This document shows, piece by piece, positions 3,804 through 32,000 of a stretch of DNA of 32,000 bases (positions are counted from its first letter, which is position 1; each line of letters begins with the position of its first letter). This DNA is from an uncultured Lentisphaeria bacterium. Its GTDB lineage: Bacteria > Verrucomicrobiota > Lentisphaeria > JABSQK01 > JAJFLO01. Under the pieces are notes generated by a model that saw only the letters and a list, made by a program, of their open reading frames with translations, made no database searches and was not told where the DNA came from. Position numbers and translations under genes: made by a program. The stretch lies in the NCBI GenBank assembly GCA_951812855.1, contig OX638337.1:1410001-1442000 (forward strand), written 5' to 3'.

Positions 3804-5873
3804 TTATTTCGGAGATGTCGGTGGTGGTTCAGGCGATATATCCGCGTTGTTGTTTTCTGGCTCAGGTTTGGTGTTACTGCCGCGTTTGACCTGGAGATAT
3901 TTAATGATTGGTTTTGGTGAAATTTTATAGCCTCTTGCTGAGGCACCGCGAATGGATACGTCATTAAAGTCTATATCTTTATGCTGAACTTTTTGACCTT
4001 TGGACGGGGCAAATTCACATCGAATTACAATTCCGTATCGGCCATATATTTTATCTATTTTGCAGCCGGGCGGGGTTGTTCTATAATCGCGGTCCATGAT
4101 ATATTTGTTGATCTTAAATCGCTTCATGTAAGAAATGTGCGATTTCTTTTCTCTATAAATCATGGAGTATACCTGATCTCTATCTGACTTCATGACAGAT
4201 GCAACAGAACCGATATAGAGTTTGTCCGGTATCTGAATAACTTTATAAACTCCAGTCCAGCCCAAAATGACAAGTCGATCATACTCGGTGCATGAAATGG
4301 GTTCGCTTGTTTTGACGGCTTTTCCGACATATCCGGTTGATTTATCCCACCCGACTTTAATGTTGCTGAGAGCAATAGCACGAATATTAATTGTTTCTAT
4401 ATCCTCGATTTTAGTATGTCGTGGATGGGCTTTGCCATAGCGTTTGCTCAAATCTTTCAAATAATTGATTGTATAGTTTTTAATATTCGCAAGATTTTCT
4501 TTAATGTCATCTATTTTTGCGAGTATGTCGTCCAGATCCTTTTTATTTTTATCGATATCAAATTGTGAGATTCTTCGAATAGGAATCTGCAATAATGTTT
4601 CGATATCTTTTTCGGTAATGTCCCGTTTTAATTGTTTGATGAATGATTTCAGACCTGATTTAACCTCTTGCAGTACCTTTTCGTAAGTGTTACAATCTTC
4701 AATGCGTTGGTAAATTCTATTTTCAATAAAAATCTGAGCCAGTGTTTTAGCATGGAACAGGTCTTCAAGTTTTCCGAGTTCTATTTCCAGTTCATTGCGA
4801 AGATCTTCTACAAGTTTGTGGGTATTATATTCTAACACTTCATTAACATTCATTATCCAGGGACAATTGTTTCGAATCACCAGGCAATTCGTTGAAATTC
4901 CGGTTTCACAATCCGTGTAGGCATAAAGTGCTTTCATGGTCTGGTCTGCATATACTCCACGGGGCAGGGTAATTTCAATTTCAATATTTTCAGCAGTATA
5001 ATCATTCATGGCAGCCACTTTTATCTTTCCTTTATTGACTGCATCCTCGATTGAATCCATCAGAGACTCGGTTGTCGTGGTTGCCGGTATTTCCCGAATT
5101 ATGAGGGTTTTTTGATCGGTAATTTCAAATTTTGCCCGCAATCGAATTTTACCGTTACCTTTGTGATAGTCGCTGACATCCATGATGCCGCCTTGAATAA
5201 AGTCCGGATAAATTTCAAATGGTTTATTCCGAAGAATTTTAATCTGGGCTTTTAGTAATTCGTTGAAATTATGAGACAGAACTTTGGTTGCCATTCCGAC
5301 AGCGATTCCCTCGGTGCCCTGCATGAGCAATACCGGAACTTTCGCAGGCAGTGATATCGGCTCTTTATTGCGGCCGTCGTAGGAATCAATAAACTCCGTG
5401 ATTTCTTTATTAAATAAAACTTCCCGTGCCAACGGCGATAATCTGCATTCGATGTAACGTGCAGCAGAGGCACCGTCTCCCGTGAAAATATTGCCGAAAT
5501 TACCCTGCCGATCAATGAAATAGTCTTTATTTGCCAAATTCACCAATGCATTGCCGATAGATGCATCTCCGTGCGGATGGTACTTCATCGTATTCCCCAC
5601 AACGTTGGCGACTTTATGGAATTTACCATCATCCATTTCCCATAGGGAATGTAAAATTCGACGTTGAACCGGTTTTAGACCGTCGTTAATATCAGGAATG
5701 GCCCTGTCTTTGATGACATAGGAAGCATATTCCATGAAATATGATGACATCATTTTTCTAAGTGCACTGGGTTCATCGGTTTGAATAACCTCTTGTTCAG
5801 ATTCTTTGGGATCACTGGCAGAATCGTCTGCGTATGCGAATGATTCAGGTTGATTGTGTTTGTCGTTACTCAT
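3804..5873 (-). CDS. parC: Type IIA topoisomerase subunit A, topoisomerase IV ParC-like
   Basis: 'HPHGD', the catalytic-Tyr context 'SAARYIECRL' and a short C-terminal domain with no GyrA box (QRRGGKG) seen. The start overlaps the upstream subunit B stop as ATGA. Confidence 0.8.
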   Translation of the reverse strand: MSNDKHNQPESFAYADDSASDPKESEQEVIQTDEPSALRKMMSSYFMEYASYVIKDRAIPDINDGLKPVQRRILHSLWEMDDGKFHKVANVVGNTMKYHPHGDASIGNALVNLANKDYFIDRQGNFGNIFTGDGASAARYIECRLSPLAREVLFNKEITEFIDSYDGRNKEPISLPAKVPVLLMQGTEGIAVGMATKVLSHNFNELLKAQIKILRNKPFEIYPDFIQGGIMDVSDYHKGNGKIRLRAKFEITDQKTLIIREIPATTTTESLMDSIEDAVNKGKIKVAAMNDYTAENIEIEITLPRGVYADQTMKALYAYTDCETGISTNCLVIRNNCPWIMNVNEVLEYNTHKLVEDLRNELEIELGKLEDLFHAKTLAQIFIENRIYQRIEDCNTYEKVLQEVKSGLKSFIKQLKRDITEKDIETLLQIPIRRISQFDIDKNKKDLDDILAKIDDIKENLANIKNYTINYLKDLSKRYGKAHPRHTKIEDIETINIRAIALSNIKVGWDKSTGYVGKAVKTSEPISCTEYDRLVILGWTGVYKVIQIPDKLYIGSVASVMKSDRDQVYSMIYREKKSHISYMKRFKINKYIMDRDYRTTPPGCKIDKIYGRYGIVIRCEFAPSKGQKVQHKDIDFNDVSIRGASARGYKISPKPIIKYLQVKRGSNTKPEPENNNADISPEPPPTSPK

Positions 5874-7669
5874 AACAGATTGTTAATGATGTATTCTCGT
5901 CGCTTTGGTGTATTTTGTCCCATAAAGAAACTTAGGATTTCCGGGACTTCATGAATTTTATCTACAGATACGTTGATCAGTCTGATATCGTCGCCAATAA
6001 ACTGACCAAATTCGTTTGGAGAAATTTCTCCTAATCCCTTAAAGCGTGTTATTTCAGGTGCCCCTCCAAGCTCTTCGATTGCCCGAAGACGTTCCTGATC
6101 ATCAAAGCAGTATATTGTTTTTTTCTTATTTCGAACACGGAACAATGGTGTTTCGAGGATAAATAGGTGTTCGGACAAGATAAGCTGTTCAAAATAATAG
6201 AGAAAGAATGTTAATAGAAGGTTGCGGATGTGCATCCCGTCATCATCAGCATCGGTAGCGATAATAACTTTTTCATATCTCAAACCTTCCAGTCCGTCTT
6301 CAATATTTAATGCCTTCATGACGCAGTAGAATTCGTCATTGCTAATAATAAGATCCCTCTTCTTGCCATAGCAATTGAGAGGTTTTCCTTTAAGAGCGAA
6401 TATTGCCTGCTTATACACATCGCGACAACTGACCATCGATCCGGCCGCGGACTCTCCCTCAGTTAAAAAAATCATGGTCTCAGCACCTTTTTCTGAATCA
6501 GAATTAAGATGATATTTGCAATCTTTGAGCTTTGGTATTTTCAGGGATAGTCTTTTTGCTTTTTCTCTGCTGGCTTTTTTTACCGCTTGAATCTCTTTTC
6601 GAACCTTTTCATTTTGTGCGATTTTTTCGATGATTAAATCAGCAACATCTGTATTCTTAAATAGATATTTTGTGATTATATCTCTTATTGTCGTGACCAG
6701 TTCCCCTCGAATTTCGCTGTTTCCAAGCTTATTTTTAGTTTGCGATTCAAAAATAGGGTCTTTCAGTTTAACTGATATCGCCCCGATAATTCCATTACGC
6801 ACATCGTCACCATCAAAACTCTTCCGGGCATATTCATTGACTCCTTTGAGTATACCCTCCCGAAATGCAGACTGATGAGTACCGCCATCATTCGTATACT
6901 GACCGTTGACAAAGGAATAGTACGTTTCTCCGAAATTGGCGGTATGGCAAAATGCAAATTCCAACATTTTATCTTTGTAGTGAATAATGTTGTATATTTT
7001 CTCGTCTTCGACCTTTTCCAGGATTAAATCGTGAAGTCCGTTTCTCGAATAGATTCGTTCTCTATTCAGATATAGGGAGAGTCCACTGTTGAGATAAGCA
7101 TAGTTCCACAGTTGCCGTCGGATCAATGCGATATTGAATTTGTATTTCTTAAATAGTTCTGCTGACGGTGTAAACGTAATCACAGTCCCGTCGGCTTCTT
7201 CGGTTTTCCCATCGGCTTCATTTGTTAAGCTGCCATCTGCAAATTCTGCACATTTGTACTTGCCCTTCCGAATTGCCTTAACCTGGAAGTTTTCAGAAAG
7301 GGCATTAACCGCCTTTGTACCCACCCCATTGAGTCCTACGGAAAACTGAAATACATCGGTATTGAACTTGGCACCGGTATTAATCTGAGAAACACAATCA
7401 ATGACTTTTCCCAGAGGAATCCCTCGCCCGTAATCTCGAATTGAGGCAACCTCTTCCTCAATATTGACTTCGATTTTTCTGCCGTATCCCATGATGAATT
7501 CGTCGATACCATTGTCGATCACTTCTTTTAGGAGGATATAAATACCGTCTTCGCTGTGCGAGCCGTTGCCCATACGGCCGACATACATGCCTGGACGCAG
7601 GCGAATATGTTCTAATGAGCTAAGTGTTTTTACCTTACTCTCATCGTAATTATGGGTATTGTCAGACAT
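5870..7669 (-). CDS. parE: Type IIA topoisomerase subunit B, topoisomerase IV ParE-like
   Basis: GHKL ATPase motifs 'LEHIRLRPGMYVG' and 'GLNGVGTKAVNALS'; Toprim 'LTEGESAAGS' and 'ATDADDDGMHI'. The 599-aa length fits ParE rather than GyrB. Confidence 0.8.
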   Translation of the reverse strand: MSDNTHNYDESKVKTLSSLEHIRLRPGMYVGRMGNGSHSEDGIYILLKEVIDNGIDEFIMGYGRKIEVNIEEEVASIRDYGRGIPLGKVIDCVSQINTGAKFNTDVFQFSVGLNGVGTKAVNALSENFQVKAIRKGKYKCAEFADGSLTNEADGKTEEADGTVITFTPSAELFKKYKFNIALIRRQLWNYAYLNSGLSLYLNRERIYSRNGLHDLILEKVEDEKIYNIIHYKDKMLEFAFCHTANFGETYYSFVNGQYTNDGGTHQSAFREGILKGVNEYARKSFDGDDVRNGIIGAISVKLKDPIFESQTKNKLGNSEIRGELVTTIRDIITKYLFKNTDVADLIIEKIAQNEKVRKEIQAVKKASREKAKRLSLKIPKLKDCKYHLNSDSEKGAETMIFLTEGESAAGSMVSCRDVYKQAIFALKGKPLNCYGKKRDLIISNDEFYCVMKALNIEDGLEGLRYEKVIIATDADDDGMHIRNLLLTFFLYYFEQLILSEHLFILETPLFRVRNKKKTIYCFDDQERLRAIEELGGAPEITRFKGLGEISPNEFGQFIGDDIRLINVSVDKIHEVPEILSFFMGQNTPKRREYIINNLL

Positions 7670-24133: not shown

Positions 24134-24508
24134 ATTACAATGATTATTAGTTAATCTTTGTATCTTATCTACTTCTTATGTGTACATATTGAAAAAAACC
24201 ATTGCAATACGTGAAGCAATATCAATAGTATCCCTTTTTTTTATTTTTGTTGTCAATAATTCTCTTTATAGTTTTGTAAAAGATTTTTGAAAGTGTCAAC
24301 CTTTTTTAAAACCAGTAAAACCAAGGACACCCCTTACAAAGGAATCGACTGCTTAAAAAACTTTTACCTTAAAAATAATTGTTTATACCGTATTGATATG
24401 GGATATTACCGTGATTGCGGGGTGAATAATTAAAAATAGCATTTCCTCCAATACCTTCGAGTTACAAATTATTAAAATCAATCGCACAGAATTGACTCCG
24501 GATTTCAT

Positions 24509-26102
<1,594 letters not shown>

Positions 26103-26113
<11 letters not shown>

Positions 26114-27392
26114 GTGGACAGAAGGCACGTTAGCAGACATCGCAGAGGTGCTGATGGGACAATCACCTCCCGGAAAGGATTGCTCAAAAGAGCCAATTGG
26201 ACCGTCTTTATTGAACGGACCAACGGAGTTCGGCTCTCATTCGCCTGAGACAAGGCAATACACGGAAAACCCAAAGAGGATGTCTAAAGATGGCGACCTC
26301 TTGTTCTGCGTCCGGGGATCGATAGGAAGAATGAATTGGTCAGATCAAGAATACGCGATTGGCCGAGGACTCGCGGCCATTCGGCATAAGGATCCGGACT
26401 GCCAACAATATCTACGTGGTGTAATTGACTACCGATTGGACGAACTGCTTTCAGTAGCTACTGGGTCAACATTCCCAAACGTAAGCAGAAACCAAATCCT
26501 CGGAATTAAGGTAAACATCCCACCCCTACCCGAGCAGAAAGAGATTGCTCACATCCTGGGATCACTGGATGACAGGATTGAGTTGAATAACCGGATGAAT
26601 GCGACGCTCGAAGGAATGGCACAGGCACTTTTTAAGAGCTGGTTTGTGGACTTTGACCCGGTGATCGACAATGCCCTCGCCGCCGGCAATCCGATACCGC
26701 CTGCATTGCAGGCGAAGGCTGAATTAAGAATGCTGAATGCTGAATCAGAAAACTCCTCCACTCATCATTCATCACTTAGCACTCATCATTCTCTTTTCCC
26801 CGCCGCCTTCGAGTTCACCGAACAACTCGGCTGGATTCCCGAGGGGTGGGACGTCGCAAAAGCTGAAAACTTAGTTACTCGACACAAAGTAAAACAGAAG
26901 TTCACGAAGAAGAACGCGTTGAATGAAGGGCCGGTTCCGATTTTCGATCAAGGAGCAGGCCTTCTTTTGGGATATAGCGAACTTCCCGCTGACCAAGATT
27001 CCTCAAAAGAGAATCCCAGATTTATTTTCGGCGACCATACCTGCATTACCCACTTGTCGACCAAGCCCTTTTCAGTAGGCCCAAATGTAATTCCCCTTTC
27101 AGCGAAGACACATGCTCCTTACTGGACCTACTACGCGATTAAGGATATCCAAGAATTCCAAGAATACCGACGGCACTGGATGGAGTTCTCAATCAAAGAG
27201 ACCTTGCTGCCGTCACCGGAGTTAGTAGCTGTTTTCAACGACCACGCTAAAGAGTTTCGTGCGTCGATGGAGTTAAATGACGAGATGTCGAAGACTCTCG
27301 CTCGACTCCGCGATGTCCTTCTCCCGAAGCTCATTTCCGGTGAACTCCGTATCCCGAAAGCTGAACAACTCACAGAGGAAGCATTGGCATGA
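26103..27392 (+). CDS. hsdS: Type I restriction-modification specificity subunit (two TRDs)
   Basis: Conserved 'LPPLPEQKEIAHILGSLDDRIELN...LFKSWFVDFDPV' and C-terminal 'LRDVLLPKLISGELRI'. 11-nt overlap with hsdM. Confidence 0.9.
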
Positions 27393-29374
27393 TTGAGTTG
27401 CACACAATCGACGATATTGTTCTGTTGGCAGAATCCTCCGATCTCGAATGTAAACGTGCTGGAGGGAAGGATGGAAAAGGCGAGCTGCCCAGGGATTTTT
27501 GGAAGAGCTATTCTGCGATGGCCAACACCGACGGTGGCACCGTCTTGCTGGGAATAAAAGAGAGGGACGGGCAGTTTCAACTCGGCGGGCTCGAGCGAAT
27601 AGAAAAGATTAAAAAGGACCTGTTTGATACGGCTAACAACAAGGGTAAAGTCAGCGTCAACCTGCTCGCCAACAGCTCGGTCGACACGCTCACGATAGAT
27701 GGTATTTGCCTACTTAGAATTGATATCCGCCGGGCCGGCCGTGAAGAACGCCCTGTCTACCTGAACGGCAATCCCCTGGGGAACAGCTTTATTCGCAGGC
27801 ATGAGGCTGATCAGCGACTGTCGGATGAAGCCGTCAAGCGCATGCTCGCGGAACAAACCGAAGACAGTCGCGACACCAAAATCCTGAAAGGCTTCTTTCT
27901 GAATGATCTTTGCGAAGAGACCCTGCGCACTTACCGACAAGTATTTACCAACCGGCAGCCTGCCCACCCCTGGAACGGACTGGAGCTTTGCCCATTCTTA
28001 CAGCAAGTAGGAGCGTGGCGTACCGACCGTGAGACCGGTGAGCATGGGCTAACGGCTGCCGGGCTGCTCATGTTTGGTTACCACTCTACGATTCAGGAAG
28101 CGTATCCCAACTACATGCTCGACTACCAGGAGCGTCCGGAGGCAAAAACGGAGAACCGCTGGATTGACCGTATAACGCTTGATGGAACATGGTCGGGGAA
28201 TCTCTACGATTTCTACCGCAAAATCTATCCAAAGTTGACGGAGAGCTTAAAAACTCCCTTTGAGCTGCAGGACGATCAGCGTGTGGACGAGTCTCCGATC
28301 CACGTTGCGATTCGTGAAGCGCTTTGCAATGTATTGGTGCATGCCGACTATTCGGACCGTTGCTCGGTATTGGTCGTCAAACGGCCTGATTTATTCGGAT
28401 TTCGCAATCCGGGTCTGATGCGTATCCCGGTCGACTTTGCACTTCGTGGCGGCAGCCCGGACTGCCGCAATCGAAATTTGCACCAAATGTTCCGTTATGT
28501 AGGTATCGGCGATCAGGCAGGCTCCGGCATCCCAAAAATCATGAAGTCCTGGTATGATTGCCACTGGCGCCCTCCTGAACTTATGGATAGACGAGAACCC
28601 TATGATCAAACTATCCTGCGGATGCGAATGATCGACCTGTTCCCGCAAAAATTGGTGCAAGAACTCGAATTGAAATTTGGGGAGCGCTATCAGGAACTTT
28701 TACATATCGAACGGGTGGCATTGGCGATCGCAGCAGTCGAAGAGATCGTAACCCATCAGCGTCTATATGCTCTGGCCGGAGGACACCCTGCGGGTGCGAG
28801 TCGCTGCCTCAGGAGTCTCGTCGAAAAGGGGTTCCTGGAACAAACAGGCAGCAGTCGAGGTGCAGTTTACCACATTTTGGGTGCCAGAATCCCAGGCCCC
28901 GAAGATGTCTTTGATTCTTCTGATTTCGCCGGGAGCTCCCCGATTAGTGAGAACAGGTCCCTGATTAGTGGACCGAGCTCCCCGATTAGTGAGGACAGCT
29001 TGTCAATTAGCAACACTGATACTGAAAGCTCCCTGCGTAATGTCGATGGGCTTGTGATGTCGCCCTTACACGATTTGCCGTTCGTCGACGATATGGAAGC
29101 ACTCTCCAACTCATATCGAGCTCAACTGAAACAACTTGCAAGCGAACCCAGAACCAGGAAACGCCTAAAACGGGAGCTAATGCAAGGCGTTTTAGAGTCT
29201 CTGACTACCGGGCATTATATTACGATCGCGTGCTTGTCTGAACTCACAAAGCGAGATCCCGAAAGCCTAAGGCAACTATACTTAACCAAAATGGTGAGGG
29301 AAGGAACCCTGGATATCGCATTTCCCCGCACACCAAACGATCCGCGCCAAGCATATACAAAAGCTCGAAGATGA
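27389..29374 (+). CDS. AlbA_2 (Schlafen-like, divergent AAA_4) plus HATPase_c_4 plus wHTH protein, often annotated as a RecG-like or putative transcriptional regulator
   Basis: 'ESSDLECKRAGG...SYSAMANTDGGTVLLGIKE' (AlbA_2), 'AIREALCNVLVHADYS...FRNPG...RNRNLHQMF...GSGIPKI' (HATPase_c_4) and C-terminal wHTH-like segments. ATGA overlap with hsdS. Confidence 0.8.
   Translation: MIELHTIDDIVLLAESSDLECKRAGGKDGKGELPRDFWKSYSAMANTDGGTVLLGIKERDGQFQLGGLERIEKIKKDLFDTANNKGKVSVNLLANSSVDTLTIDGICLLRIDIRRAGREERPVYLNGNPLGNSFIRRHEADQRLSDEAVKRMLAEQTEDSRDTKILKGFFLNDLCEETLRTYRQVFTNRQPAHPWNGLELCPFLQQVGAWRTDRETGEHGLTAAGLLMFGYHSTIQEAYPNYMLDYQERPEAKTENRWIDRITLDGTWSGNLYDFYRKIYPKLTESLKTPFELQDDQRVDESPIHVAIREALCNVLVHADYSDRCSVLVVKRPDLFGFRNPGLMRIPVDFALRGGSPDCRNRNLHQMFRYVGIGDQAGSGIPKIMKSWYDCHWRPPELMDRREPYDQTILRMRMIDLFPQKLVQELELKFGERYQELLHIERVALAIAAVEEIVTHQRLYALAGGHPAGASRCLRSLVEKGFLEQTGSSRGAVYHILGARIPGPEDVFDSSDFAGSSPISENRSLISGPSSPISEDSLSISNTDTESSLRNVDGLVMSPLHDLPFVDDMEALSNSYRAQLKQLASEPRTRKRLKRELMQGVLESLTTGHYITIACLSELTKRDPESLRQLYLTKMVREGTLDIAFPRTPNDPRQAYTKARR
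28933..28998 (+). repeat. Tandem duplication: 24-nt cores at 28933-28956 and 28975-28998 (23/24 identical, 42-nt period) on a degenerate 21-nt/7-aa repeat
   Basis: GAGCTCCCCGATTAGTGAG[A/G]ACAG occurs twice and encodes 'SSPISEN RSLISGP SSPISED SLSISNT'. Confidence 0.8.
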
Positions 29375-29412
29375 AATTCACCGAAGCCGAATCTGCAATT
29401 TTTAAAAGATGA
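29371..29412 (+). pseudogene. Remnant of an hsdR 5' end (MKFTEAESAIFKR*)
   Basis: ATGAAATTCACCGAAG is 15/16 identical to the real hsdR start at 31002-31017, and both overlap the preceding stop codon as ATGA. The remnant peptide resembles hsdR 'MKFTEGQLEAAII'. Confidence 0.6.
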
Positions 29413-29425
29413 TGGAGGATAAATT

Positions 29426-29518
29426 ATGAGTGATGAATTAAAGAAGATTCAGTTTTCAGCAATCGTCATTCACTGCAGTGTTCTCTACGCTGAAAATATA
29501 GCTGAGGAGACATTTTAA
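29426..29518 (+). CDS. Candidate 30-codon small ORF or leader peptide (MSDELKKIQFSAIVIHCSVLYAENIAEETF)
   Basis: GGAGG lies 7 nt upstream of the ATG, the strongest SD-like site I noted in the island. The TAA stop abuts the next ATG (TAAATG). Confidence 0.3.
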   Translation: MSDELKKIQFSAIVIHCSVLYAENIAEETF

Positions 29519-30544
29519 ATGAAAAAAGATCTCACCACCTCTCACATCGATCGACAAAATATTCTGAATAACCCATATGCACTTTCTGAAATTGAAAAAG
29601 CGGCAGGAATCAAAGGTATTTCCTTTGAAGGGAAATCTGTAGTATTGAAGGAACAAATCGCACTGTTTTTTGAAGTCACACCGCGAACCGTTGATAATTA
29701 TCTGGAGAAAAACGCCTCAGAATTGCAACAGAATGGTTACGAGGTTCTCAAAGGTAACCGATTGAAAGCTATCAAGTTAGCGATTCAGCAATCCGATGTT
29801 CACGAAAGAGATTTCGTGAACATAAATAAAAGCGCCCAATTGGGGGTCTTCGATATTCGTGCTTTTCTCAATCTGGCTATGTTGATGTGCGAATCCGAAC
29901 GTGCCGGTCTGCTTCGCAAGGCAATTCTTGATATCGTGATTGATACGATTAATCAGCGAACAGGCGGTGGTACGAAATACATCAATCAACGCGATGAAGA
30001 ATTCATCCAATCCGCGTTTGTCGAAGAGAATTACCGTAAACAATTCACCGATGCCCTTGATCATTGTATTGACATGGGAAAAATCAAATACGCAATTTAC
30101 ACCGATAAGATTTATATCAGTATCTTTAAGGAAAAATCTCAGGAGTACCGGAAAATTTTGAAGTTATCAAATCGAGACAGCCTGCGTGATACCTTCTACT
30201 CAGAAGTGCTTGACCTCATCGCATCTTACGAATGTGGCTTTGCTGATATTCTGGAAGACGCTTTCAGGAACAAAGGTCGAAAGCTTACGAACTGGGAAGT
30301 CGACCGTCTATTTAAGAAATTCGAGAAGCAGGCTCACTGGAAGCCGCTCATTGAAAAAGCTCGTAACAAAATGGCCAGCCGTGACCTGGTTTTTCGTGAT
30401 GCTCTTCATCTCCAGTTAAAAGACTGTATAACGCCACTTCAGCGGGATGAATTCGAACGATTCCTCGGGGAGAAAAGTCAAGAACTTGCCGAACGTCTTG
30501 ACGAAGCCGGGGATGTATTGAAACGCCTCAAGGAGCGCGAGTAA
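29519..30544 (+). CDS. 341-aa putative HTH DNA-binding protein of unrecognised family, translationally coupled to the Doc gene
   Basis: HTH-like 'LKEQIALFFEVTPRTVDNYLEKN', and 'LGVFDIRAFLNLAMLM.SERA' reminiscent of Bro-N/ORF6N/DinD-type proteins. The stop overlaps the Doc start (TAATG). Confidence 0.6.
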   Translation: MKKDLTTSHIDRQNILNNPYALSEIEKAAGIKGISFEGKSVVLKEQIALFFEVTPRTVDNYLEKNASELQQNGYEVLKGNRLKAIKLAIQQSDVHERDFVNINKSAQLGVFDIRAFLNLAMLMCESERAGLLRKAILDIVIDTINQRTGGGTKYINQRDEEFIQSAFVEENYRKQFTDALDHCIDMGKIKYAIYTDKIYISIFKEKSQEYRKILKLSNRDSLRDTFYSEVLDLIASYECGFADILEDAFRNKGRKLTNWEVDRLFKKFEKQAHWKPLIEKARNKMASRDLVFRDALHLQLKDCITPLQRDEFERFLGEKSQELAERLDEAGDVLKRLKERE

Positions 30545-31005
30545 TGGGTTTTGTCTATCTCACCCTTGAACAAGCAATCGATATCCATGCTCTGACGGTG
30601 GATAAGAGCGGCGGCGGTGAAAAAGGGCATCTTGAAATAGGGAATTTGGAATCTGTCCTGGATAATATCCAAAATGATGACTACTACCCCACCTTTGATG
30701 CCAAACTTACCCATCTATTTCATTCAGCCTGTAAATTTCATTGTTTTCAAGATGGAAACAAGCGGATTGCCATTACGCTTTGTGTCAGGATGTTAATAGA
30801 TAATGGGTACTTAAGGAGTATTAATGGCTTTATCCAAAAATCAGAAAACATCAGCTACCATGTTGCAGCCGGAGTAATTTCTAAAGAACTTCTCGGCGAG
30901 TGGATGTTAGCCATATTGACAGGTGAAGAAGAGGATGAGTCATTGAAATTGAAAATTTTGAACGCAGTCACACAAGAATCTAAGTCCGAAGAATACAACT
31001 CATGA
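30544..31005 (+). CDS. doc: Fic/Doc-family toxin (death-on-curing type)
   Basis: 'VYLTLEQAIDIH' start and the Fido active-site motif 'HCFQDGNKRIA' (HxFx[D/N][A/G]NKR). The 153-aa size is typical of Doc. Confidence 0.85.
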   Translation: MGFVYLTLEQAIDIHALTVDKSGGGEKGHLEIGNLESVLDNIQNDDYYPTFDAKLTHLFHSACKFHCFQDGNKRIAITLCVRMLIDNGYLRSINGFIQKSENISYHVAAGVISKELLGEWMLAILTGEEEDESLKLKILNAVTQESKSEEYNS

Positions 31006-32000
31006 AATTCACTGAAGGGCAACTTGAAGCTGCTATCATCGAACTTCTCGGAGAGGAGGGCTACCCGCATGTATTGGGTAAGACGATTGAGCGTCAACGG
31101 CAGGAGGTGTTGATCAAGGCAGATTTAAATGAATTTTTGGCGAAAAAGTATGCAAAAGACGGGATTACGCCAGGTGAAATTGATTCGGTGATTCACCAGT
31201 TGGAAGCTTACTCTGCATCCGATCTTTACGAGAGCAATAAGGCAATCATGAAGCTGGTCTCAGATGGCTTTCTGCTGAAGCGGGAAGATCACACCCGGAA
31301 GGACCTGTATATTCAGCTGATCGATTATTCAGACTTAGCGGCGTTTCGGGAACCGAAGGAGGGGGAGATTCCGCATATTCTTGCAGATGATTCGGAGACT
31401 TATAAAAGAAAACTGAACATTTTCAAGATCGTCAATCAGCTGGAGATCGTCGGTCACGAAACTCGCATCCCTGACGGCATTCTCTATATCAACGGCCTGC
31501 CTCTGGTGGTGTTTGAGTTCAAGAGTGCGATCCGCGAGGAGACAACGATTCACGATGCCTTCCTGCAGCTTACCAACTGCTACAGGCGCGACATCCCGGA
31601 ACTGTTTAAATACAATGCACTTTGCGTGATCAGCGACGGGGTGAATAACAAGGTGGGTTCGTTTTTCGCATCATACGAATTCTTCTATGGATGGCGGAAG
31701 ACGGATGGCAGCGACCTGATCGAGAAAGACGGGATCGACTCGCTCTATTCGATGATTAAAGGACTGTTTCATCCGACCCGCCTCTGTGATGTGATCCGAA
31801 ATTTCGTTTACTTTCCTGATACTTCCCGGAAGGAGGAGAAGATCCTTTGCCGGTATCCCCAATATTACGCGGCGACGAAGTTGTATCGAAATATATTGCA
31901 GCATATGTGTCCCGAGGGCGATGGTAAGGGCGGCACGTATTTTGGGGCGACAGGCTGCGGCAAGAGTTTTACCATGTTGTTCCTGGTGCGACTGTTGATG
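31002..32000 (+). CDS. hsdR: Type I restriction enzyme R subunit, N-terminal part (333 codons, open at the window end; absent from the ORF track)
   Basis: My translation gives 'MKFTEGQLEAAIIELLGEEGYP...', the nuclease core 'PDGILYINGLPLVVFEFKS' and Walker A 'GATGCGKSFT'. ATGA overlap with the doc stop. Confidence 0.9.
   Translation, partial: MKFTEGQLEAAIIELLGEEGYPHVLGKTIERQRQEVLIKADLNEFLAKKYAKDGITPGEIDSVIHQLEAYSASDLYESNKAIMKLVSDGFLLKREDHTRKDLYIQLIDYSDLAAFREPKEGEIPHILADDSETYKRKLNIFKIVNQLEIVGHETRIPDGILYINGLPLVVFEFKSAIREETTIHDAFLQLTNCYRRDIPELFKYNALCVISDGVNNKVGSFFASYEFFYGWRKTDGSDLIEKDGIDSLYSMIKGLFHPTRLCDVIRNFVYFPDTSRKEEKILCRYPQYYAATKLYRNILQHMCPEGDGKGGTYFGATGCGKSFTMLFLVRLLM

Follow-up and report, generated by a model that had tools for sequence, protein, structure and literature searches.

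The window analyzed here is a stretch of 32,000 nucleotides (nt) from contig OX638337.1 of an uncultured Lentisphaeria bacterium. Its right-hand part holds a type I restriction–modification (R-M) operon, in which two genes on the + strand lie between hsdS and the restriction gene hsdR: one for a 341-amino-acid (aa) protein (29519..30544), and one for a 153-aa Doc-family Fic protein (30544..31005). The two open reading frames (ORFs) share one base (TAATG); the coordinates bear out the sizes and the overlap given in an initial annotation of this DNA. Both proteins correspond to components of PDC-M59 in PADLOC-DB v2. Residues 3-340 of the 341-aa protein align with positions 2-335 of the 338 in the PDC-M59A profile (E 1.1e-96, full length), and Doc residues 3-146 align with positions 5-148 of the 159 in PDC-M59B (E 7.5e-34). 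Components A and B are thus both present, adjacent, and on the same strand. By these profile matches the locus is a further instance of a catalogued candidate, the A/B core of PDC-M59, and the concept of Doc within R-M loci is itself more than ten years old.

The catalogue comprises 145 'phage defence candidates' (PDC), nominated by 'guilt-by-embedding' in BREX, DISARM, and type I R-M loci, and the PDC systems are presented there as predictions (Payne, Hughes, Fineran & Jackson 2024, bioRxiv 10.1101/2024.01.29.577857). As entered in its Table S8, PDC-M59 is a three-family cassette, FAM_01085>>FAM_00079>>FAM_00939, with 46 instances. The same table contains a two-family cassette, FAM_01085>>FAM_00079, with 414 instances, marked 'Reject' with no reason stated in the table (10.1101/2024.01.29.577857). 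The three families presumably are M59A, M59B, and M59C, in which case the rejected two-family cassette would be the present pair. The third component (M59C, presumed FAM_00939) found no match in a 661-aa protein encoded upstream of the pair, a 30-aa ORF next to it, or HsdR, nor among the neighbors scanned in related loci. The window therefore shares with PDC-M59 the A and B families and the embedding in modification-based defence, and differs in that no third family was found.

An earlier study had assigned Doc toxins in R-M neighborhoods to a 'multi-pronged' defence, drawing on the analogy of PrrC (Anantharaman et al. 2013, PMC3710099). The same study placed RhuM-like proteins, often fused to DOC, in the same position in R-M loci (PMC3710099). 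The initial annotation had offered the pair as something new; the full-length PDC-M59A/B matches and the 2013 proposal take away most of that novelty. Already known, then, are the candidate listing and the embedded-Doc idea. Left for interest are two questions: what the 341-aa protein senses, and how Doc is controlled.

Related loci were gathered in two sets, 80 genome loci found with the 341-aa protein and 80 metagenome loci found with Doc. The 341-aa family numbers at least 6976 proteins at E <= 1e-3, forming 1024 clusters at 50% identity, and identity remains 75-82% across Verrucomicrobiota, Planctomycetota, Nitrospirota, Chloroflexota, and Proteobacteria. Doc lies directly downstream of the 341-aa gene in about 75 of the 80 genome loci, the exceptions being mostly contig ends, and its start is no more than 3 nt from the partner stop in 59 of 61 loci. 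Approached from the Doc side, the partner is directly upstream in all 77 of the 80 metagenome loci that have room for it. The pairing is kept at 40-48% identity: in 23 of 24 viral contigs, in Streptococcus satellites, on an Ilyobacter megaplasmid, and in E. coli 042. The two genes thus belong together as cognates coupled in translation, with pairing near-obligate in both directions down to 40% identity.

Two of these distant settings deserve description. In four Streptococcus satellite phages the pair adjoins the integrase. The satellite partner is annotated as 'CiaB protein', apparently a mis-annotation, and the satellite Doc ORFs are unannotated; in Javan319 (locus L083), for example, the pair spans 4995-6455 and includes a 150-aa Doc ORF at 6003-6455 with the motif HMFRDGNKR. 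In E. coli 042 a lone pair (EC042_RS21130 and EC042_RS21125, 48% and 44% identity; 5605-7088 of locus L084) lies beside dinD, and a stand-alone pair is found in 14 other complete E. coli genomes as well. The native E. coli 042 copy is a convenient system for direct testing.

The 153-aa protein scores well above the Pfam cut-off for Fic (PF02661; 42.2 bits against 24), with residues 5-84 covered. Its residues 66-74, HCFQDGNKR, align residue for residue with HIFNDANKR of P1 Doc (PDB 3K33), and the Doc/Fido motif named in the initial annotation is upheld on both counts. A PDB sequence search with Doc returned nothing beyond P1 Doc. RefSeq names the orthologs 'death-on-curing family toxin', and the H.F.DGNKR motif is retained in 60 of 61 partner Docs, a pattern of strong conservation in the predicted catalytic motif. 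A Doc motif with NKR, of the form HxFx(D/N)(A/G)NKR, is of the kinase type, unlike the AMPylase motif GNGR; its Lys replaces the second Gly of the Fic motif. P1 Doc phosphorylates EF-Tu and blocks translation, and P1 Phd-Doc is a classic addiction module.

Likeness to P1 Phd-Doc extends to three features: the Fic fold; the motif HxFxD(A/G)NKR at the same residue numbers, 66-74; and an upstream, coupled partner gene. The differences are equally plain. The present partner is 341 aa long, with a putative KilA-N-like domain and no PhdYeFM domain. The present Doc carries a conserved acidic C-terminal extension of about 30 aa (...EDDESLKLKI...) that is not found in P1 Doc, and its score against NCBIfam TIGR01550 (DOC_P1), 36.4 bits, falls just under the cut-off of 38.65. 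Finally, the present cassette is without a promoter region of its own in most loci.

This last point follows from the edges of the unit. Between the window and related loci, similarity at the nucleotide level runs from the ATG of the 341-aa gene (29519) to just short of the Doc stop; the 148 nt that precede 29519, which hold an hsdR remnant and a 30-codon ORF, have no match in related loci. In most embedded relatives the partner ATG overlaps the stop of the upstream gene or follows it by no more than about 15 nt, so that a promoter or operator of the cassette's own has no space there. As these comparisons indicate, the cassette is a mobile, ORF-precise two-gene unit without conserved upstream DNA.

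The window also preserves a trace at the left edge of the unit. The 16-mer ATGAAATTCACCGAAG at 29371 is repeated, with one mismatch, at the start of hsdR (31002-31017). Two matches to this hsdR-start 16-mer are observed where shuffled sequence predicts 0.01, and the 'dead hsdR remnant' of the initial annotation is accordingly real. It consists of a 13-codon ORF on the + strand (29371..29412) that encodes MKFTEAESAIFKR and a stop, and is probably a recombination scar at the left edge of the insertion. The scar looks like the result of a swap-in of the cassette, perhaps also of the present hsdR 5' end.

Base composition varies along the same operon. The fraction of G+C at third codon positions (GC3) is 0.71 in hsdM, 0.52 in hsdS, 0.56 in the 661-aa gene, 0.44 in the 341-aa gene, 0.41 in Doc, and 0.61 in hsdR, against 0.37 for the chromosome backbone. 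Together, the GC3 contrast and the duplicated hsdR start point to recombination of the pair into a mosaic island. With its ORF-precise edges and scar, the locus makes a clean case of cassette exchange among R-M, BREX, and other defence operons. The hsd island as a whole (24500-32000) is foreign in composition and internally mosaic; on the source contig it is flanked by a small Imm_superinfect/SHOCT gene and by tig-clpP-clpX.

Mobile edges of this kind would also suit a selfish element: a type II-like toxin–antitoxin cassette that stabilizes, or merely rides, mobile operons and satellites by addiction or hitch-hiking, with no direct role in phage defence. Besides the ORF-precise edges, the composition unlike that of its neighbors, and the scar at its edge, this explanation can call on the occurrence of the pair on a megaplasmid, in satellites, and on prophage-like contigs, and on the established precedent of P1 Phd-Doc. 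Also in keeping with it, the curators of the embedding screen rejected, as their Table S8 has it, the two-gene cassette that we take to be the pair (10.1101/2024.01.29.577857). However, the pair is placed strongly and repeatedly in or beside defence systems, not in mobile elements at large, and the integrase-side site it holds in satellites would be the usual place of defence cargo. Addiction and abortive infection, moreover, are not mutually exclusive. A wholly selfish cassette is possible, if unlikely.

The defence settings themselves are diverse. In about 25 genome loci the pair is flanked by type III Mod and Res, and genes for SNF2 and DUF4391 often lie upstream; about 14 loci have it between HsdS and an EcoEI-type HsdR. 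BREX loci hold it at two positions, BrxC->pair->PglX and PglX->pair->PglZ (the pair lies between PglX and PglZ in locus L058, for instance), and on an Ilyobacter plasmid it comes after Res. Pairs from type I (two HsdR families), type III, and BREX settings are 60-80% identical. Homologs of the 341-aa protein are thereby linked both to Doc (about 75 of 80) and to defence loci of type I, type III, and BREX, the association that the initial annotation had anticipated. In several other loci the neighbors are housekeeping genes, and no defence gene was detected close to the pair.

Several loci that appear free of R-M genes keep N-terminal fragments of Res or HsdR, and therefore represent decayed operons. 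Loci without an R-M marker are often still defence islands: in L024 a Septu PtuA-like ATPase and PDC-S02 come after the pair; in L019, MADS mad3/mad8-like genes do; and L058 is the BREX locus just mentioned. RhuM adjoins the pair in three related loci.

This wide spread of the pair, which with little sequence change occupies at least four unrelated host systems and also stands alone, argues against control by one specific R-M complex, to which a toxin so masked would be bound, and so against a guard of the PrrC kind, which the initial annotation had proposed. In such a guard the type I R-M complex would keep Doc or the 341-aa protein latent, and a phage anti-restriction protein, by disabling the complex, would release the toxin. 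The resemblance to PrrC-EcoprrI is one of position, a latent toxin gene between hsdS and hsdR. The pair occupies that prrC position, and the Doc stop is overlapped by the hsdR start at 31002 (ATGA), just as it often overlaps the ATG of the restriction gene in related loci; such logic for embedded systems has been discussed in the literature (PMC3710099). However, a PrrC-type guard would be expected almost exclusively in type I hsd loci, whereas the pair is found with two HsdR families, with type III Mod/Res, at both BREX positions, after Res, in satellites, and alone. Proteins this well conserved would hardly dock onto so varied a set of complexes, and where the pair stands alone, the toxin has to be controlled with no R-M system at hand. 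Moreover, the present unit has two genes, and neither product contains an ABC ATPase or a HEPN (anticodon nuclease) domain in Pfam and PADLOC searches. Guarding by the R-M complex is very improbable.

The partner belongs to a family whose members RefSeq names 'DNA-binding protein'. Searches of the 341-aa protein found no Pfam or NCBIfam family above its cut-off (ORF6N, E 0.016; HTH_40, E 0.021) and no Pfam match to PhdYeFM; Phd/YefM-type proteins are only about 70-90 aa. In a confident AlphaFold2 model built on 30 homologs (predicted local distance difference test, pLDDT, 88.8; predicted template-modeling score, pTM, 0.81), a winged-helix/beta N-terminal part (about residues 30-122) precedes an extended domain made up of helices only. 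Foldseek comparison with the predicted viral structures of BFVD returned KilA-N, antirepressor, BRO, and 'regulatory' proteins (E 2.5e-6 to 1e-2), though TM-scores were modest, 0.3-0.6. From the PDB, Foldseek drew a single, weak match, to the DNA-binding protein DdrC (E 0.02; target TM 0.41). This suggests that the N-terminal domain is KilA-N/ORF6N-like and predicted to bind DNA; the helical C-terminal domain, as modeled, is without a close structural match. PDB sequence searches gave no relative for the family profile or for the C-terminal 69 residues. The helix-turn-helix-like character and non-Phd size noted in the initial annotation are thus supported, by the predicted winged-helix domain and the lack of PhdYeFM, but the family that it could not name is PDC-M59A.

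Conservation in this family is not confined to one domain: many invariant polar and aromatic residues occur over the whole length. The last 20 or so residues are modeled with low confidence (pLDDT 72, 56, 41), yet contain near-invariant R336 and L337, and the tail that they form is basic and conserved.

A possible role for this tail comes from the NetFlax network, in which two C-terminal 'Phd-C' helices of the PanA antitoxin neutralize Doc, and a sensory function is proposed for its globular domain (PMC10440598). PanA(Phd-C):Doc likewise joins Doc to a larger, multidomain partner, and is the best mechanistic precedent. It differs in that the 341-aa protein has no Panacea domain, and a Phd-C-like element there is conjecture. 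By the same analogy, one may conjecture that the basic C-terminal tail is a candidate Doc-binding element.

RhuM (PF13310; PDC-S05) offers another comparison. It too is about 340 aa long, has an N-terminal DNA-binding domain and a helical C-terminal domain, occupies the same embedded position in R-M loci, and is linked or fused to Fic/Doc domains. It differs in showing no detectable homology with the 341-aa family. The identification of the family as RhuM was considered and rejected: hhalign against bona fide RhuM gave a probability of 0.2%, and no Pfam RhuM match was found. The PADLOC model PDC-S05 represents RhuM (seen with L036:6792-7916), and the PDC-S23 models combine a RhuM N-terminal domain with Fic, a single-chain analogue of a DNA-binding protein plus Doc. 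Among the metagenomic relatives of the 341-aa protein, the 639-aa P0123 joins an N-terminal C5 DNA methyltransferase domain to a full 341-aa-like domain; it could be a true fusion by which the family is tied to a type II modification enzyme, or else an artifact of gene calling (read-through).

The pattern of gene decay bears on which partner controls which. Doc is broken, absent, or motif-mutated in nine loci where the partner is intact, and the partner is disrupted in only two, though it is 2.2 times longer than Doc. These counts come from an ORF-based table with manual checks; counting stop symbols in tblastn alignments over-called broken Docs. In one of these two cases (L103/L105, 2157-3480), a frameshift truncates the partner, and Doc has R74W in its catalytic motif (HCFQDGNKW). 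The inhibitor-first gene order, the two-way obligate pairing, and this decay pattern lead us to infer that the 341-aa protein restrains Doc. The part of sensor or antitoxin that the initial annotation gave to it is thus plausible.

These considerations suggest a model that we judge, with guarded confidence, to be the probable one: the pair is a self-contained, mobile Doc-type toxin module, inserted upstream of hsdR, with the 341-aa protein as its inhibitor or switch, and it acts independently of the system around it. Two ORFs, PDC-M59 A and B, would have been dropped into the type I R-M operon just upstream of hsdR. The 153-aa protein would be a Doc-type Fic kinase that, to judge from its motif and from what is known of P1 Doc, phosphorylates EF-Tu and stops translation. 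The 341-aa protein would be its cognate inhibitor, as gene order, coupling, and obligate pairing imply. It may also be a switch or sensor, as suggested by the KilA-N-like N-terminal domain and the unusually conserved helical domain. Its basic tail, predicted with low confidence, would be the candidate contact with Doc, in the manner of the Phd-C helices. Presumably the cassette uses the transcription of the host operon, with translation coupled to its neighbors, and would work whichever modification-based system surrounds it. Its likely role would be a backup layer of abortive infection, an addiction element, or both.

Several observations weigh against this module. First, if the family assignments hold, the two-gene cassette was rejected in the curation by Payne et al., as recorded in their Table S8, and only the three-gene version became PDC-M59. 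Second, a literature search found no main-text mention of PDC-M59, and no experimental work on the pair. Third, conservation of the 341-aa protein equals or exceeds that of Doc (70-80% versus 51-76%). Such conservation is unusual for an antitoxin, and hints at a constrained function of its own. Fourth, the decay asymmetry (nine versus two) is only a trend, each locus set having been selected by one partner. Fifth, locus L148 (1930-3422) has an in-frame stop in the partner together with a canonical, apparently intact Doc; it is either a genuine counter-example or a sequencing error. Finally, the resemblance of the C-terminal tail to P1 Phd (EF..hydrophobic..EL..R) is anecdotal, lacks statistical support, and is too weak to serve as evidence.

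Some of these observations would be accommodated if the two proteins formed a single effector, in which a DNA-bound 341-aa subunit targets or activates Doc on a specific substrate (a phage protein or a DNA-associated protein), and Doc alone is harmless to the host. In its favor, the partner is at least as conserved as Doc, with many invariant polar and aromatic residues throughout, and L148 combines a truncated partner with an apparently intact Doc. Single-chain fusions of a RhuM-type N-terminal domain to Fic exist without a separate antitoxin (PDC-S23; PMC3710099), and the want of promoter or operator room in most loci makes a classical autorepressor unlikely. However, toxic Doc kinases already known show this gene order, this 1-nt overlap, and this NKR motif; losses and mutations affect Doc more often than its partner; and the one frameshifted partner occurs with Doc R74W. 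We regard the two-subunit effector as decidedly doubtful.

Returning to the self-contained toxin module, the predicted DNA-binding domain of the partner calls for explanation. It cannot be that of a classical autorepressor in those loci, the majority, where the cassette has no promoter room for it to act upon. Together with the conservation of the partner, this suggests a role in sensing or targeting; both features fit poorly with a simple antitoxin. The 341-aa protein might then be a DNA-reading switch that senses the state of DNA, or a phage factor, and releases Doc to stop translation. Possible cues include foreign DNA, DNA that lacks modification, the products of restriction, and an anti-restriction protein. 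This more specific proposal is tentative, and on the unlikely side. If true, it would unite the pair and the RhuM-N/Fic fusions (PDC-S23) in one general class of immune modules, 'DNA-binding sensor plus Fic/Doc effector', able to plug into any modification-based defence operon.

More broadly, should the pair prove to function in defence or abortive infection, the system would be a widespread one, found in many phyla, in phage satellites, and in some E. coli, to judge from the size of the 341-aa family. It would place a Fic/Doc kinase under a large, conserved DNA-binding protein of unknown fold class, and bear on how infection is sensed by effectors of the toxin type.

The surrounding operon is a type I system. 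Upstream on the + strand are hsdM (24509..26113), for a 534-aa methyltransferase (Pfam N6_Mtase, E 4.8e-103; HsdM_N, E 2.7e-23), and hsdS (26103..27392), for a 429-aa specificity subunit (Pfam Methylase_S, E 3.7e-20). Downstream, also on the + strand, hsdR (31002..32000; PADLOC REase_I, E 5.4e-107) continues past the window end; on the source contig it is intact and encodes 1074 aa, with HSDR_N, ResIII, SWI2_SNF2, and T1RH-like_C domains. These assignments confirm that the pair sits inside a type I R-M operon, and the series of junctions from hsdM to hsdR described in the initial annotation is correct throughout: hsdM and hsdS overlap by 11 nt; hsdS and the 661-aa gene overlap (ATGA); the 661-aa gene stop overlaps the start of the 13-codon ORF (ATGA, 29371-29374); a 13-nt gap containing GGAGG separates the 13-codon from the 30-codon ORF; and the 30-codon ORF stop abuts the start of the 341-aa gene (TAAATG). 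Because the junctions overlap, co-transcription of the pair with the R-M genes is likely. A consensus scan of the operon for promoter- and terminator-like sites gave counts equal to those in shuffled sequence, and is silent for or against co-expression.

The 30-codon ORF (29426..29518, + strand, with GGAGG upstream) matched no family in Pfam, NCBIfam, or PADLOC, and showed no nucleotide or translated similarity in the 80 related loci examined for it. Its candidacy as a conserved third gene was rejected for want of that similarity. It probably is locus-specific filler or leader sequence, not a conserved gene.

The 661-aa gene (27389..29374, + strand) encodes a Schlafen AlbA_2 domain (SLFN_AlbA_2, E 1.1e-10), an HATPase_c_4 domain (E 2.4e-6), and a C-terminal winged helix-turn-helix. 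A PADLOC model search gave this protein no PDC-M59 match. It matches PHROG 12156, 'DNA helicase' (E 3.9e-40), and has weak PADLOC similarity to N-terminal domains associated with prokaryotic Argonaute (pAgo). On these domain matches it is a separate embedded gene, neither an hsd component nor part of the Doc pair, and it may be a candidate second embedded defence gene in the same operon.

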